DNA of 64,000 bases from NCBI GenBank assembly GCA_963792745.1, contig CAWBXH010000005.1:721868-785867 (forward strand), given 5' to 3'. The notes under the pieces are model-generated. The model was not told where the DNA came from. It made no database searches and saw nothing but the letters and a program-made list of their open reading frames with translations. Every line of letters begins with the position of its first letter. Within the stretch, counting starts at the first letter, position 1. The DNA comes from an uncultured Actinomycetota bacterium. Its GTDB lineage: Bacteria; Actinomycetota; Actinomycetes; Mycobacteriales; Mycobacteriaceae. Both the position numbers and the translations under genes were made by a program. Below are positions 48 through 47,247 of this stretch, piece after piece.

Positions 48-2434
48 CTACTGCCGCGACATCGAGATGTTGAGTTTGTCCTCCGCGGTCACCAGGTGAT
101 CGTGGCCGTCCTGGCCGATGTCGATGACCACCCGGTCGATCGTGCCGGTGAACTGGTTCCCGCGCGGGCCGTAATCCTGTGAGCTCGGCGAGCCTGTGTC
201 TGAGCCAACGTCGCAGGCCTCGTCGCACGAAAAGGCCATCGGTTCGGTCTGCTCGACTCGGCCGGTCCCGACGGCTTTTCCGTCGTAGAAGAGCGTCACG
301 TCGCCGCCCTTGCCTAATCCGCCTCCGTCGTAGGCGAACTCCATGCGCACCTCGTGCTCACCTGCGGGGATTGGCTCCTCGGCCGTGACGTAGTAGTACT
401 CGATGCCGAAGAAGTTGTAACAGTACTTCAGCTTGCCCTCGTGCACATAAAGGCACCAGCCACCGACGCCGCCGCCCTGGCTGACGATGACGCCGGCAGC
501 GCCCGCATCGGGGACGAGACTTTCGCGGTGACCGAATGCGACTTGTTCTTGATGTTGACCACACAGTTTTCCAGCAGTCGCATTCCCGAGAACAGCGTCT
601 GGGTGTCTCCGGTGATCAGCTTCGGCCGTCCGGCGATATCGGCGTCGAAGCGTTCGACCGACCGGTCATCAAGGGGTACAACGTTGTACTTCACCGCCTC
701 GATCAGCCAGAGGCGTTGCAGCTCAGCGAGTTTCTCCGGATTCTCGGCCGCCAGGTCGTGGGCCTGCGTCCAGTCGTCGGGCGCATACAGTTCCCACACG
801 TCGTCGTCGAGCGACGGGCTGTCGAAAACCATGGCGTGCGGTGCTTGGTCACCGCTGTCCAGCCATTGTGATAGATGCCGCGATTGCCGAACATTTCGAA
901 GTACTGGACGTCGTGGTTCTCCGGTGCTTCGGCGGTACGCAGCGTCGGCATCATGCTGTGACCCTCTAGCGGCGCCTGCTGGATGCTGTTCACCACCGTC
1001 GGCGCGGGTAGCCCGGCAGCCTCGAGAATGGTTGGAGCAACATCGATCACATGGTGGAACTGGTTGCGGGTCTTGCCCTTATCCGCAATGCCGTTCGGCC
1101 AGTGCACGATCGTGCCGTTGCGGGTGCCACCCCAGTGCGACGCGACCTGCTTGGTCCACTGGTACGGGGCGCACAGCGCGTGCGCCCAGCCGACCGCGTA
1201 GTGGTTGTAGGCGTCGGGGGTGCCGAAGTCGTCGATCTTGGACAGCAGGAATTCCGTCGTCTCGATGCCCGGCAACCGTTGAGCGTGAACATCTCGTTGA
1301 AGCAGCCGTTCGGTGTGCCCTCCGCGGATGCGCCGTTGTCGCCGATGATGTAGTAGATCAGCGTATTCTCAAGTGCCCCAAGGTCATCGATTGCGTCGAC
1401 CAACCTGCCGACATGGAAGTCGGTCTGCTCGAGGAAGCCGGCGTAGATCTCCATCTGACGGGCCAGCACCGGCTTCATCTCGGCGGGCATGTCGTTCCAT
1501 GCCGGGAATCTCGGCGTGGCGTGCCGTCAACTCGGCGTCCTTCGGGACGACTCCGAGTGACTTCTGCTTCGGCAATATTTGCTCGCGCAACACATCCCAG
1601 CCGTCGTCGAACTTGCCCTGGTACCTGTCGGACCACTCCTTTGGCACGTGGTGCGGGGCATGGGTGGCGCCCGGCGCGTAGTACATGAAGAACGGCTTGT
1701 CGGGGGCGAGCGCCTTCTGTTGACGCACCCAGGTGATGGCCCGATCGGCCAGATCCGCGTTGAGCGTGTAACCCTCCTCGGGCGTCTTCTCCGGCTCGAC
1801 CGGCGTCGTGCCCTCGAAAAGCCCGGGGTAGTACTGGTTGGCCTCGCCGCCGATGAACCCGTAGAAGTGCTCGAATCCCGAACCGGTGGGCCACTGGTGG
1901 AACGGCCCGACCGGGGAGACCTCCCACACCGGCACCTCGTGGCACTTGCCGAACTGAGCCGTCGAATAGCCGTTCAGCCGAAGGGTTTCCGCGATCGGCG
2001 CCTTGTCCTTCGGACGCACGCTGGAGTAGCCGGGTGCCGACGTCGCGATCTCGGTGATGCCGCCCATTCCGACGGAATGGTGGTTGCGGCCGGTCAGCAG
2101 CGCCTGCCGCGTGGGCGAACAGAGCGCCGTGGTGTGGAAGCGGTTCAGCTTGACGCCGCCTGCGGCCAGCCGCTCGGCGGTGGGCGTGTTGCAGGGGCCG
2201 CCGAAGGCTCGATGACGCGCCGAAGCCGACGTCATCGATCAGCACGATGAGCACGTTCGGCGCCCCTGCGGGCGGCTTCACCGTCGTGATCGGCGGGTAC
2301 TTGGTGTTCGGATCCTTGGCGTCGTATGTCGTCAGGCCGACGTACTGGGGATCGGGAATGGGCAGGATGTCCCGCCGGACCTCACCCCCCGCCGCGTCCG
2401 ACTGGCCGTTGTTCTGAGCTGACGAGCTGGGCAT
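48..2434 (-). pseudogene. Cys-type arylsulfatase, broken by about five single-base frameshifts
   Basis: Six consecutive minus-strand ORF pieces join into one sulfatase: PNVLIVLIDDVGFG metal-binding start, CSPTRQALLTGR formylglycine motif (CxPxR), GKCH, YYAPGATHAPHH, IIGDNG. Frame breaks near 2209, 1505, 1275, 830 and 517. Confidence 0.9.
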
Positions 2435-2540
2435 GAGGGATCCTCTCGGCTTTCTCGGGCCACATTTCTCGGGTCCGAGACCGCCAGCCTATGGAGATGC
2501 GTCGAGAGCCCGTGTGTTTTTGCCGCGGACGATAAAAACT

Positions 2541-2566
2541 CGAAACGGAATTCCAGCAGCGGAAGT
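2541..2566. repeat. Left half of a palindromic unit split by the IS
   Basis: CGAAACGGAATTCCAGCAG (2541-2559) is an 18/19 inverted match to 3864-3882. It is followed by 7 nt of loop (CGGAAGT). Confidence 0.85.
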
Positions 2567-3849
2567 CACGAGGCGGATTCATACGGTCAGTGCAACATCC
2601 GATGATCTAGGAGGTTGCCGTGACGTCTGGGGTTCGGTTTTCGAGAGCGGTGAAGCGGGAGTTCTTCGATCTTGTCTGCCTGGGTGTGGCCACGACAGAG
2701 GCGTCGGTGAATCTGGGCGTGTCGCGTCGCACCGGCTGGCATTGGTGGCGCGACGCTGACGGGATGAAGCTACGCAAAGGCAAGAACGGTCTGGGTGGGT
2801 TGGCCGGCCCAGGGGATCTCACTGGGCCCGGCGGCCCGGGCCATCGGGTCAGCTTCGAAGAGCGCGTGGAGATCATGCGCGGCCGCGACGTGGGGCTGAG
2901 CTTCGCCGAGATCGGCAGACGCCTCGGGCGCGACCGCTCGGTCGTCTGGCGGGAATACCGCCGCAACCGCCTTCCTGACGGGGATTATCACGCCCTGATG
3001 GCCAATGCTCGTGCAACGCGAGAAGCCCGCCGGCCCAAAGCCTTCCGGGTCAACAATCACCGGTTGTGTTCGGCGATCGAAACCTGGATGGATGACGGGT
3101 GGAGCCCCAGATTGATCTCGCAGATGTTGGCCCATGACCATCCCGATGACAAGCTGATGCAAGTGAGCCACGAAACCATCTACCAGAGTCTGTATGTGCA
3201 GACCCGTGGCCAGCTGCGCGCCGATCTGCACAAGTGCCTGTCAACCAAACGTGCGACGCGCAGACCGCGCGGGCATCGCGGCCGCACCGGGGTCTACACC
3301 CCCGGCGAGATCTTCACCATCCGCGACCGCCCGGCTGAAGCCGAAGATCGGGCCGTACCCGGCCATTGGGAAGGCGACCTGATCCTGGGCGCGGGTCACC
3401 GCAGCGCGATCGGCACCCTGGTCGAGCGGGCCACCCGGTTCACCATCTTGTTGCACCTGCCCGTCGATCACACCGCCGAATCGGTGGCCACCGCGATGAT
3501 CGAGGCCATGGGTGAGCTGCCCGAGCACCTACGCCGCTCGATCACCTGGGACCGCGGCAGCGAAATGGCCGATTGGCGCAGCATCCAACTGCAGCTGCAA
3601 GCCCCGGTCTTCTTCTGCAATCCAAGTTCCCCGTGGCAGCGCGGCACCAACGAAAACACCAACCGGCTGCTGCGGTTCTGGTTCGAAAAAGGCAGCGACC
3701 TCAGCGGCTACACCAAAGCCGACCTCAAACGCGTCGCCGACAAACTCAACACGCGACCACGACCCACACTCGACCTCGACACACCCGCCCAACGCCTCGC
3801 CACCCTGATTAGCCAAGCCGCCTAAAAGTTGCACTGGCCCCTTGACATT
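2567..3849 (+). mobile_element. IS30-family insertion sequence (left end 2564-2567, right end 3847-3849)
   Basis: Intact IS30-type transposase and subterminal 12-bp inverted repeats GGTCAGTGCAAC (2585-2596) / GTTGCACTGGCC (3828-3839), 11/12 match. The right end reads TGTCAAGG inward. Removing 2567-3849 restores a 59-bp palindrome matching 47189-47247. Confidence 0.88.
2620..3825 (+). CDS. IS30-family DDE transposase
   Basis: 401 aa. N-terminal HTH-like segments (LSFAEIGRRLGRDRSVVWRE), VSHETIY, HWEGDLI, ITWDRGSEM, WQRGTNENTNRLLR, LNTRPR. SD AGGAGG at 2609-2614. Confidence 0.95.
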   Translation: MTSGVRFSRAVKREFFDLVCLGVATTEASVNLGVSRRTGWHWWRDADGMKLRKGKNGLGGLAGPGDLTGPGGPGHRVSFEERVEIMRGRDVGLSFAEIGRRLGRDRSVVWREYRRNRLPDGDYHALMANARATREARRPKAFRVNNHRLCSAIETWMDDGWSPRLISQMLAHDHPDDKLMQVSHETIYQSLYVQTRGQLRADLHKCLSTKRATRRPRGHRGRTGVYTPGEIFTIRDRPAEAEDRAVPGHWEGDLILGAGHRSAIGTLVERATRFTILLHLPVDHTAESVATAMIEAMGELPEHLRRSITWDRGSEMADWRSIQLQLQAPVFFCNPSSPWQRGTNENTNRLLRFWFEKGSDLSGYTKADLKRVADKLNTRPRPTLDLDTPAQRLATLISQAA

Positions 3850-3882
3850 GCCCGAGTAAGGGCCTGCTGGAACTCCGTTTCG
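3850..3882. repeat. Right half of the palindromic unit split by the IS
   Basis: GCCCGAGTAAGGGC (loop remainder) plus CTGCTGGAACTCCGTTTCG (arm). Confidence 0.85.
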
Positions 3883-3889
3883 CGCGAAC

Positions 3890-5039
3890 TTACGAAGGGC
3901 GCACTCGGGTGAAGCGGTGCAGCAGCCAAGCCAGCGGCACCGTCACGATGAACGTGGCCACGAAGAGCATGGGCATCGAGCCCGTGTAGATCTGAAAGTG
4001 CAGGATCTCGACCATCACGAGTCTCCATCGTCAGCAGATGGATCAGGAAGATCTCGTAGGAGATCTCGCCGAGGAACACCATCGGACGGCTGGCAAGCAG
4101 CCGCGCGTACAGGCCGCGGTCACCCAGCGCCAGCGGCGCGACCGCCAGCGTCGCGATCACGGCGTAGAAGACCGCCTTCCATATCGCAGGCGCCAAGGCT
4201 AGGGGGACGTCGTCGGTTCCCCCGCAATCGGTGTCGAGGCGATGAAGTAGCTCGCCACCGCGACGGGTAGCAGGCAATGCGTAGACAGCGGACGCCCATC
4301 GGCCGCAAGGACAGCGAGAAGCATGCCGCCGACGAACCAGGCCAGGTAGTGGGTAGCCACAGGCGCGCCCCGTCGGGCAACAAGTCGGCGGTGTGGACGA
4401 AAATCAGCCACGCAGGCGTGGCCGTGGTCAGGAGCACAAGGCCGCCAGCAACAGCCCGGGTCGCCAGCGGCGGCGACACAGCACCACCAGCAACAGGTAG
4501 GCCAGCAACGGTAGCACCACATAGAACGCGACTTCCACTGCCAGGCTCCACATCTGGGTCAGCGCTTGATGCAGATACGAGTACAGGTAGTGATCGGTGT
4601 AGATCTGCGTCAGCGTGAGATTGCGAAACAGTCCCATCCAGGTGTGCCCGGGATTGGGGCCCGCGGTGCGGAAGTGGTAGACGAGATAGGCGACCAGCAC
4701 GGTGACGACGTAGGCGGGCATGATGCGGCGCACCCGGTGCCAGGCGTAGCGGCGCACCGACGGCGCAGGCCCACCCGCCGCCACCGCCTTGACCCACGGG
4801 CCGAACAGCAGAAACCCTGACAGCACAAAGAAAATCGAGACGCCGACCTCCATCCGCGAATACACCAGACCGACGTAGCCATGGGTGTACTTGCCGGTGG
4901 TGTACGCCGCATGGGTGGCCATCACCAGAAGCGCGGCGACGGCTCGGATTCCGGTGAGCGACGCCACCCGCTCGGGGGTCGCGACCGACTCGAGGCCACC
5001 CTGCGCGGGTGGGACCTTGGTCCCCTTCGACACCGTCAT
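3890..5039 (-). pseudogene. Acyltransferase family 3 (OafA-like) membrane protein, Rv1254-like, multiply frameshifted
   Basis: RVASLTGIRAVAALLV, GVSIFFVLSGFLL, QMWSLAVEVAFY and GEISYEIFLIH occur in different frames. Stop TAA at 3890-3892 after WLLHRFTRVRPS. Overlaps the deaD stop. Confidence 0.85.
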
Positions 5040-46082: not shown

Positions 46083-47183
46083 ATGCCATCGTTTCGCGCT
46101 CTGCCTTCATCGCTTCGATCCGCGCGAACCAAGCACACCCACCCCGATGCGCGGTCCATCCATGTCCCGGTGGCCCGCGCAATGGTGGATTGCGGCGTCT
46201 ATGCCGACGGCAAACGGCTGCCCGGCAAGTACACCCACGCCGCCGCCCTGAACAAGGTGCGCGAACTCGAACAAGAGGGCAGGGAAGCCTTCGTGTGGAT
46301 CGGCCTGCACGAGCCCGACGACCACCAGATGCAGGCCGTCGCCGACGTGTTCTGCCTTCACGAGCTGGCCGTCGAGGACGCGGTGCACGCCCATCAACGA
46401 CCAAAGCTGGAACGCTACGACAAGACGCTGTTCCTCGTTCTCAAGACGGTGAACTACGTCGAACACGAATCGATGATCAACGCCAGGGAGATCGTCGAGA
46501 CCGGCGAGATCATGATCTTCGTCGGAGCCGATTTCGTGGTGACCGTTCGTCACGGCGAACACAGCGGGCTGGCGGCAGTGCGCAAGCGTCTCGACGCCTC
46601 ACCCGCAACCCTCAAACTCGGGCCATATGCCGTGATGCACGCTATCGCCGACCATGTCGTCGACAGCTACCTCGACGTCACCGATCTGATCGAGACCGAC
46701 ATCGACGCGATGGAAGAGGACATCTTCTCGCCGTTGAAGCAGACCAACATCGAATGCATCTACCTCCTCAAACGAGAAGTCGTCGAACTACGCCGCGCCG
46801 TCGCCCCGCTGACGCTGGCACTGCAGCGGATCGGCACCGACCACAACGACCTGATCTCGATCGAGGTGCGGCGCTACATGCGCGACGTACTCGACCACAA
46901 CATTCAGGCCTCGGACCGGATCACCAGCTACGACGAGTTGCTCAGCTCACTGGTGCAGGCCGCGCTCGGCAAGGTGGCGATGCAGCAGAACGTCGACATG
47001 CGCAAGATCTCGGCGTGGGTGGCGATCGCCGCGGTGCCGACCGCGATTGCAGGCATCTACGGGATGAACTTCGACCACATGCCGGAGCTGAAATGGACCT
47101 GGGGCTATCCGGCGGTGCTGACGTTGATGTTCTGCGTCTGCTTCCTGCTGTACCGCACATTCCGTCGCAACAACTGGCTCTAG
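46083..47183 (+). CDS. corA: Mg2+/Co2+ transporter CorA
   Basis: [25 protein letters not shown] signature, two C-terminal TM helices. Confidence 0.95.
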
Positions 47184-47188
47184 TTCGC

Positions 47189-47247
47189 CGAAACGGAATT
47201 CCGGCAGGTCTCTTCTCGGGCACTTTCTCTGCTGGAATGCCGTTTCG
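47189..47247. repeat. Intact 59-bp palindromic unit (19-bp arms, 21-nt loop)
   Basis: CGAAACGGAATTCCGGCAG-N21-CTGCTGGAATGCCGTTTCG between the convergent corA and SUFU-like genes. Confidence 0.88.

Follow-up and report, generated by a model that had tools for sequence, protein, structure and literature searches.

The IS30-family element and its borders

The window analyzed here is a stretch of 64,000 nucleotides (contig C5, positions 721868-785867) from the genome of an uncultured bacterium of the Mycobacteriaceae (6.58 Mb, 66% G+C, 94.6% complete). Close to its start it carries an IS30-family insertion sequence (IS) of 1281 bp (2572-3852), which is one of three copies in the genome (designated c1, c2, and c3, c1 being the copy in the window). 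As stated in a preliminary description of this DNA, the element is surrounded by 19-bp inverted arms, CGAAACGGAATTCCAGCAG at 2541-2559 and CTGCTGGAACTCCGTTTCG at 3864-3882, which match at 18 of 19 positions. The evidence presented below indicates that the IS very probably inserted precisely at the dyad centre of a ~58-bp unit that was already present and resembles repetitive extragenic palindromic (REP) elements, and that such targeting is a behaviour of the whole clade to which the element belongs. The features concerned are the following.

2541..2559, no strand: left arm of the split unit, CGAAACGGAATTCCAGCAG, read as target DNA and not IS from the intact unit at the orthologous site in the related genome G015
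2560..2571, no strand: left half-loop, cggaagtcaCGA, in which 2569-2571 is the left copy of the duplication
2572..3852, plus strand: IS30-family insertion sequence, 1281 bp, delimited by copy alignment and duplications
2572..2596, plus strand: left terminal inverted repeat, GGCGGATTCATACGGTCAGTGCAAC, 17/25 against the reverse complement of 3828-3852
2620..3825, plus strand: transposase gene, 401 amino acids, with an N-terminal helix-turn-helix (HTH) region, HTH_38, and a DDE (rve) core
3828..3852, plus strand: right terminal inverted repeat, GTTGCACTGGCCCCTTGACATTGCC
3853..3863, no strand: right half-loop, CGAgtaagggc, in which 3853-3855 is the right copy of the duplication
3864..3882, no strand: right arm of the split unit, CTGCTGGAACTCCGTTTCG
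47189..47247, no strand: intact sibling unit with arms at 47189-47207 and 47229-47247 and a 21-nt loop

An alignment of 20+ copies from 15 genomes, together with the target duplications, gave the borders of c1. The outermost letters of c1 are GGCGGATTCATACGG...CTTGACATTGCC, and the general end pattern over the lineages is GGCGGATTCAT...CTTGAC(A/T)TTG(CC/AG), with a short direct repeat directly outside. In c1 this repeat is a 3-bp duplication, CGA, at 2569-2571 and 3853-3855. The terminal repeats of the IS, which each start with GGC and match at 17 of 25 positions by hand count, are kept in all lineages compared. The rebuilt unit reads arm-cggaagtcaCGAgtaagggc-arm and comprises 58 bp, with 19-bp arms and a loop of 20 nt; c1 sits at its dyad centre, the insertion junction being ...CACGA|GTAAG. 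From arm to arm the span is 1342 bp, 61 bp more than the true element, a point of some relevance for annotation, where the 19-bp arms are easily mistaken for the terminal repeats of the element and yet are host repeat DNA.

The preliminary description had placed the element at 2567-3849, which is wrong by 5 and 3 bases. Its arithmetic was right, as deletion of 2567-3849 leaves arm-CGGAAGTGCCCGAGTAAGGGC-arm with a 21-nt loop that agrees at 15 of 21 positions (hand count) with the reverse complement of the loop of 47189-47247. This identity is too favourable, however, because the last three bases of the IS (GCC) chance to resemble the unit. The junction proposed with these borders, AAGT|GCCCGAG, is replaced by the one given above with its CGA duplication, and the 21-mer loop by one of 20 nt.

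The open reading frame (ORF) at 2620-3825 encodes an IS30-family transposase (Pfam HTH_38 and rve; NCBIfam NF033563 at 261.7 bits, cut-off 80). The element also agrees with the IS30 family in having a single ORF, a length of 1281 bp where ~1.0-1.3 kb is expected, 25-bp ends, and a short duplication. By tblastn, c1 holds the only intact transposase frame in the genome, c2 being frameshifted and c3 decayed.

Insertion into pre-existing palindromic units

All three copies in the source genome lie between arms of one and the same unit family, here called family A, and their similarity runs unbroken from the arm into the IS. The duplication is CGA at both c1 and c2 and has decayed at c3. The preliminary description had named arms that travel with every copy as an observation that would speak against targeting, and this is what is apparent in 3/3 copies here, yet comparison with other genomes points to the arms being target DNA. 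For this comparison we used 121 genomes, one per species.

The empty sites envisaged in the preliminary description were found in G015, where the unit is intact at all three orthologous positions. At the c1 site it reads CGAGATGGCACTTCCGCAG-ccgaaattgcgagtgacggc-CTGCCGGAATGCCATTTCG and lies beside the same downstream gene; at the c2 site a single alignment spans the junction and the unit is uninterrupted, and the c3 site is likewise intact. G015 has no close copy of the IS. In G004, which carries three IS copies with 0 differences over 1284 bp, the flanking 36 bp (arm plus half-loop) differ at 7-31 positions, and the arms were therefore not copied along with the element. Related lineages from sister genomes, with 70-80% DNA identity to c1, align with it over 2572-3850/3852 only; outside these limits they have inverted arms of quite different sequence, for example CGAGATCGACGTTAGCGC in G004 and GCGAGCGTAACGCCACGGCGA in G008. 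Neither of these two arm families was found when the source genome was searched for them. The units also occur independently of the IS: IS-free units of the genome's own arm family were present in each of the genomes checked (the source genome, G004, and G008), and family-A units are found in many members of the genus that lack the IS, the core of which was detected in 20 of the 121 genomes. Together, these comparisons show the arms to be target DNA that the IS did not bring with it.

In order to locate the insertions within their units, 21 full-length copies from 15 genomes were scored for flanking inverted arms. In total, 18 of the 21 copies lie between inverted arms scoring at least 12, the 99th percentile for shuffled flanks being 9.5, and where the arms are clear (16 of 16 copies) the half-loops on the two sides differ in length by no more than 2 nt; the insertions are therefore at the dyad axis. 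A duplication of 2-4 bp abuts the inner IS ends in 19/21 copies and measures 3-4 bp in 18 of them. The duplications read CGA six times, TCG three times, GCC twice, and GTCG, GGC, GCCC, GAGC, CTC, and CCG once each, and three are of 1-2 bp. The IS lineages of the genus use at least eight arm families, different lineages using different ones, and the copies represent repeated independent events. Two further family-A insertions were found in one metagenome scan, the contig of one of them stopping short of the right junction. The left half-loop of one member of this pair reads as the reverse complement of the other's right half-loop, suggesting that the IS sits in opposite orientations relative to the loop. 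A copy in a metagenome-assembled genome (MAG), L021, is also in the opposite orientation, and the element inserts either way round relative to the loop.

Outer inverted repeats also enclose elements from Arthrobacter, Pseudarthrobacter, and other Actinomycetota that are related at an amino-acid identity of at least 54%. The label 'mycobacterial' used in the preliminary description fits named relatives, which include those of Mycolicibacterium chlorophenolicum and M. brisbanense. Several Streptomyces elements with ~45% identity lie in G+C-rich terminator-like hairpins, and many still more distant relatives have no outer repeat. Whether in this genus of the Mycobacteriaceae or in actinobacterial relatives further removed, the lineages of the clade occupy the centres of such palindromes almost exclusively. 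The proposal of a dispersed ~59-bp palindrome behind genes, into whose loop the IS is directed, is supported, five independent tests having shown the arms to be target DNA.

Other spans of ~1-1.8 kb from unit to unit were considered as additional insertions (in G054, G083, and G053, and the family-B 'long pairs' of the source genome) and rejected, as they contain ordinary genes between two separate units. The exception is a span on contig C5 of G008, which is a decayed fourth IS copy.

The palindromic units

Family A comprises 12 free and three IS-split units in the source genome, with no stray arm pairs, and the paired arms are thus no chance feature. The free units measure 50-61 bp, and their loops resemble what lies next to the arms in the IS copies. 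The family-A arm can be written CGAAACGG[A/C/T]ATTCCAGCAG, and it occurs in many genomes of the genus, mostly in 57-bp units. The units have arms of 19-22 bp and a spacer of ~20 nt, lack a T-run, and fold as hairpins of -18 to -25 kcal/mol (z-scores of -4.6 to -8); the sibling unit at 47189-47247 gives -18.3 kcal/mol (z -4.9). They are situated 4-20 bp from the stop codon of an ORF with high G+C content at third codon positions, often between convergent genes. A stop codon within 8 bp, which the preliminary description had reported for both units of the window, is present at the intact one (TAG, 47181-47183, 5-nt gap) and only probable at the split one (TAA, minus strand, 3890-3892, 7-nt gap), because the frame of that gene is broken further upstream. 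The same description had given both units the same orientation relative to the upstream gene. This was not supported, as loops were found in both orientations; because many units lie between convergent genes, they have no consistent polarity.

Three units are kept at orthologous sites between the source genome and G015, which marks them as old and stable and not newly mobile. A search of Rfam with the unit returned no family, only meaningless microRNA matches at E >3. REP elements can be accompanied by a cognate REP-associated tyrosine transposase (RAYT), and the source genome has the repeated short extragenic palindromes, but a Y1/RAYT gene (PF01797) gave no match in this 94.6% complete assembly, the control genomes giving matches. 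From their sequence and position we regard the units as a dispersed family of REP-like elements just behind stop codons. We found no published description of these mycobacterial palindromes in a literature search that was incomplete.

Family A is not the only one of its kind. The source genome has ~68 palindromic units in at least four families (A 15, B ~28, C 12, and D ~13 units), the units of families B, C, and D being of 53-68 bp. Family B, GCGATTTCGGCGTG...CACGCCGAAATCGC, has an inner GCGCTGAGCGC hairpin in its ~28 copies (e.g., C5:714719-714771); family C, CGCGAGCAGACGCAAACTCGCA, has 12 copies (e.g., C5:129005-129062), and family D, CGCGAGCGTGCGTG, ~13 (e.g., C5:186084-186144). The arm families used by the IS lineages have common tips (SCCGARAY...) and different stems, and family A shares the loop motif CGAGTA with the families of G044 and G004. 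Units of one family may also follow consecutive genes in a unit-gene-unit-gene-unit arrangement, as at L135 (G054:C14:154900-156950), L136, L137, and L139, which is the arrangement expected for elements tied to gene 3' ends. Such abundant 53-68-bp palindrome families in mycobacteria merit attention in their own right, candidate roles being those of a terminator, an mRNA stabiliser, or a protein site.

Target selectivity and alternative explanations

In the source genome, 3/3 copies are in the 15 units of family A, though families B, C, and D offer ~53 others. Family B is abundant in G044, G081, G119, and G015 and is the commonest family in several IS-bearing genomes, and among the IS copies with flanks read not one has B-type arms. 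The other families are thus avoided. Within a genome each lineage keeps to one arm family, as seen in 3/3 copies in G004, 4/4 in G008, 2/2 in G106, and 2/2 in G073 (copies with flanks read). The closest lineages share the centre TTCGA|CGAGT.

Several observations weigh against selective insertion into pre-existing units, or limit what can be drawn from the copies. Three of the 21 copies lack clean arms, these being weak in G088, diverged in G004a, and missing in G076. In the last genome (G076:C2:1220292-1221564; L119) the IS is surrounded by a 13-bp direct repeat, GTCAACTATGTCG, and CCG, with no inverted arms, which resembles the long duplications of the IS1630 type and is seen in this copy alone. 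The comparison set holds one genome per species and many MAGs with possible indel errors. The family specificity in the source genome is weakly significant, (15/68)^3 or ~0.01 at best, and over all lineages no target consensus was found beyond the G+C-rich centre and duplication. In addition, c2 and c3 have in common an odd right half-loop (aatagattc) and an arm variant. A right half-loop of this type is present in none of the 12 free units of the source genome, and the G015 loops at the c2 and c3 sites both differ from it. The shared half-loop could mean that part of a unit moved with the IS. It seems, however, to be attributable to gene conversion between IS copies, with a tract continuing past the IS end into the right half of the host unit. 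Gene conversion is invoked because c2 (C13:964972-966254) is a mosaic, identical to c1 over nt ~400-1000 and c3-like (97-99%) over its last ~200 nt. The three events in the source genome are therefore not fully independent, which further weakens the significance of their family bias.

One alternative concerns how the target is recognized: any extruded hairpin or cruciform of the right geometry would be accepted and its sequence ignored, the family pattern reflecting only the units available. The at least eight unrelated arm sequences among closely related transposases, with no common target consensus, would fit such recognition by structure, as would the use of both orientations and the position of the distant Streptomyces relatives in terminator-like hairpins. 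We nevertheless consider it rather doubtful that structure is all that is read, since the three other families of similar size in the source genome are unoccupied, no copy examined has arms of the B type even where family B is commonest, and the closest lineages are consistently centred on TTCGA|CGAGT. Furthermore, lineages differ in the putative recognition helix of their N-terminal HTH, and a reading of the sequence would thus be possible.

We also offer a tentative suggestion, to which we give no more weight than to recognition by structure. The transposase lineages and the unit families of their hosts may have diversified together, the N-terminal HTH being retuned in each lineage to its own arm or centre, and the arm families may constitute one superfamily with compensatory stem changes that is kept without a RAYT. 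Co-variation of the HTH with the arm family was examined and is suggestive, not clean: G044 and G107 have similar arms and different helices, in a comparison uncorrected for phylogeny. If the suggestion holds, the clade would provide a series of naturally re-programmed DDE transposases, each with a nearly site-specific target of ~58 bp.

A very different explanation is that nothing is targeted: a 1342-bp element would have the arms as its genuine outer terminal repeats, and the 50-61-bp units would be its internal-deletion derivatives, similar to miniature inverted-repeat transposable elements (MITEs). The arms on all three copies of the source genome, the similarity that continues from arm into IS, the likeness of the free-unit loops to the sequences beside the arms, and the right half-loop that c2 and c3 have in common and no free unit possesses all agree with it. 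It is nonetheless very improbable in view of the non-identical arms of identical IS copies in G004, the unrelated arms of lineages that are 70-80% identical and lose homology sharply at 2572/3852, the uninterrupted units at three orthologous sites of G015, and the abundance of units in genomes without the IS. The arms are, moreover, unlike the terminal repeats of the IS, and the duplications of 2-4 bp flank its inner ends and not the arms. A status of the units as MITEs of this particular IS was rejected on the same grounds, as the unit ends are not IS repeats and no duplication surrounds the unit.

That the IS inserts nearly at random, with survivors only in harmless intergenic palindromes, is hardly credible: insertions into the extragenic units should be nearly neutral and only fixed copies are visible in a set with one genome per species, but selection, which may enrich intergenic sites, cannot centre 16/16 copies within 2 nt of the dyad of a ~20-nt loop, confine them to ~15 units (<1 kb in total) in a 6.6-Mb genome, or exclude the more abundant and equally extragenic family B.

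For insertion at the centre of pre-existing units, the reading we prefer, a mechanism can be outlined by analogy with IS30. A circle with abutted ends would be copied out, as the family membership of the element leads one to expect, and would then be integrated by a two-fold symmetric transposase complex that recognizes a target which is itself symmetric, its attacks on the two strands being staggered by ~3 bp over the dyad. This target may consist of the two arms acting as half-sites or of an extruded hairpin or cruciform, and a lineage-specific G+C-rich centre such as TTCGAG would contribute to the reading. As the units are extragenic, insertion into them would spare coding sequence, in line with the 'safe harbour' suggested in the preliminary description; it would also part the two arms and thereby presumably abolish the hairpin.

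Surroundings of the copies

The genes on either side of c1, at 1384-2434 and 3890-5039 of the window and both on the minus strand, appear to be broken. The former encodes a sulfatase with a frame switch near 2235, and the latter an acyltransferase whose frame contains a stop codon at 4428-4430 and shifts near 4010. Either the two genes are true pseudogenes or the breaks stem from indel errors in a long-read assembly. The left arm of the c1 unit is located ~106 bp upstream of the sulfatase start codon in the source genome. On contig C8 of G015 (L004), the sulfatase start is separated from the palindromic unit by an extra gene of ~700 bp (locus ~2230-2960, minus strand) that the source genome lacks.

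The orthologue of the c2 site in G016 (G016:C19, ~80316-80481; L106) contains no more of a related IS than its final ~95 bp, ending in ...CTTGACATCGCC. Beyond this remnant comes a hairpin of another kind, CTCCCCCGCAAGCGGGAGG, and family-A arms are missing. It represents either an old, partly deleted insertion or a separate event.

Comparison with known systems

The element resembles IS30 of E. coli and IS1655 of Neisseria meningitidis in having an HTH and DDE transposase, ends of ~25 bp, short duplications, and insertion at the centre of a palindrome. Olasz in 1998 and Kiss in 2007 reportedly described palindromic consensus sequences of 24 bp and 19 bp for the targets of IS30 and IS1655. The target of these two elements is a contiguous consensus of 19-24 bp, whereas here it is a family of dispersed ~58-bp repeats whose arms are separated by 15-22 bp, and the duplication, which is 2 bp in IS30, is mostly 3 bp. 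When it integrates through a junction of its inverted repeats (IR-IR), IS30 uses hot spots that are nearly palindromic and a stagger of 2 bp (PMC9333248). The association of IS1655 with the REPs of Neisseria is weak, 2/13 and 2/6 (PMC1525189, table 1), in contrast to the copies described here, which are essentially 100% in the repeat.

Targeting of REPs has been documented for members of the IS3, IS110, IS4, IS256, and IS5 families, IS30 not being listed in the survey of 2006 (PMC1525189). An association in which all copies occupy one position of an extragenic palindromic repeat has been termed a 'type 1 association' (Tobes and Pareja 2006; PMC1525189), and in REP-targeting IS the repeat serves as a harmless landing pad (PMC1525189; PMC12288879). 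The same position is occupied in 3/3 copies of the source genome, 3/3 in G004, 4/4 in G008, and 18/21 genus-wide. The type 1 association is shared with IS1397 and ISKpn1 (IS3 family), IS621, ISPpu9, ISPpu10, and ISPa11 (IS110 family), and ISRm22 (IS4 family). The present case differs from these in its IS30 transposase, its actinobacterial host, and the lack of a RAYT partner, none having been found in the source genome; the members of the IS110 family, moreover, use a different chemistry, RNA-guided or site-specific. A published pairing of an IS30-family element with mycobacterial palindromes was not found in our incomplete literature search, which makes this weak evidence of absence.

The element adds the IS30 family, in Actinobacteria, to the IS that use extragenic palindromes as landing pads. 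With at least eight arm families and 20+ independent, exactly centred insertions, the clade is a natural data set on how DDE transposases choose a symmetric target. An element with such a long and harmless target could also seed site-preferring insertion tools in mycobacteria such as M. smegmatis mc2 155.

Within the IS30 family, IS1630 of Mycoplasma fermentans and ISMhom-1 select inverted repeats that vary in sequence and frequently lie at the 3' ends of genes (Calcutt 1999, cited in PMC7648426). IS1630 duplicates the whole inverted repeat, so that a hairpin is kept on each side, whereas in the element described here the palindrome is halved, with one arm on each side and 3 bp duplicated. The system is an IS30-family, Mycobacteriaceae case of REP- or palindrome-targeting insertion sequences, and as such a variation on known transposon behaviour.

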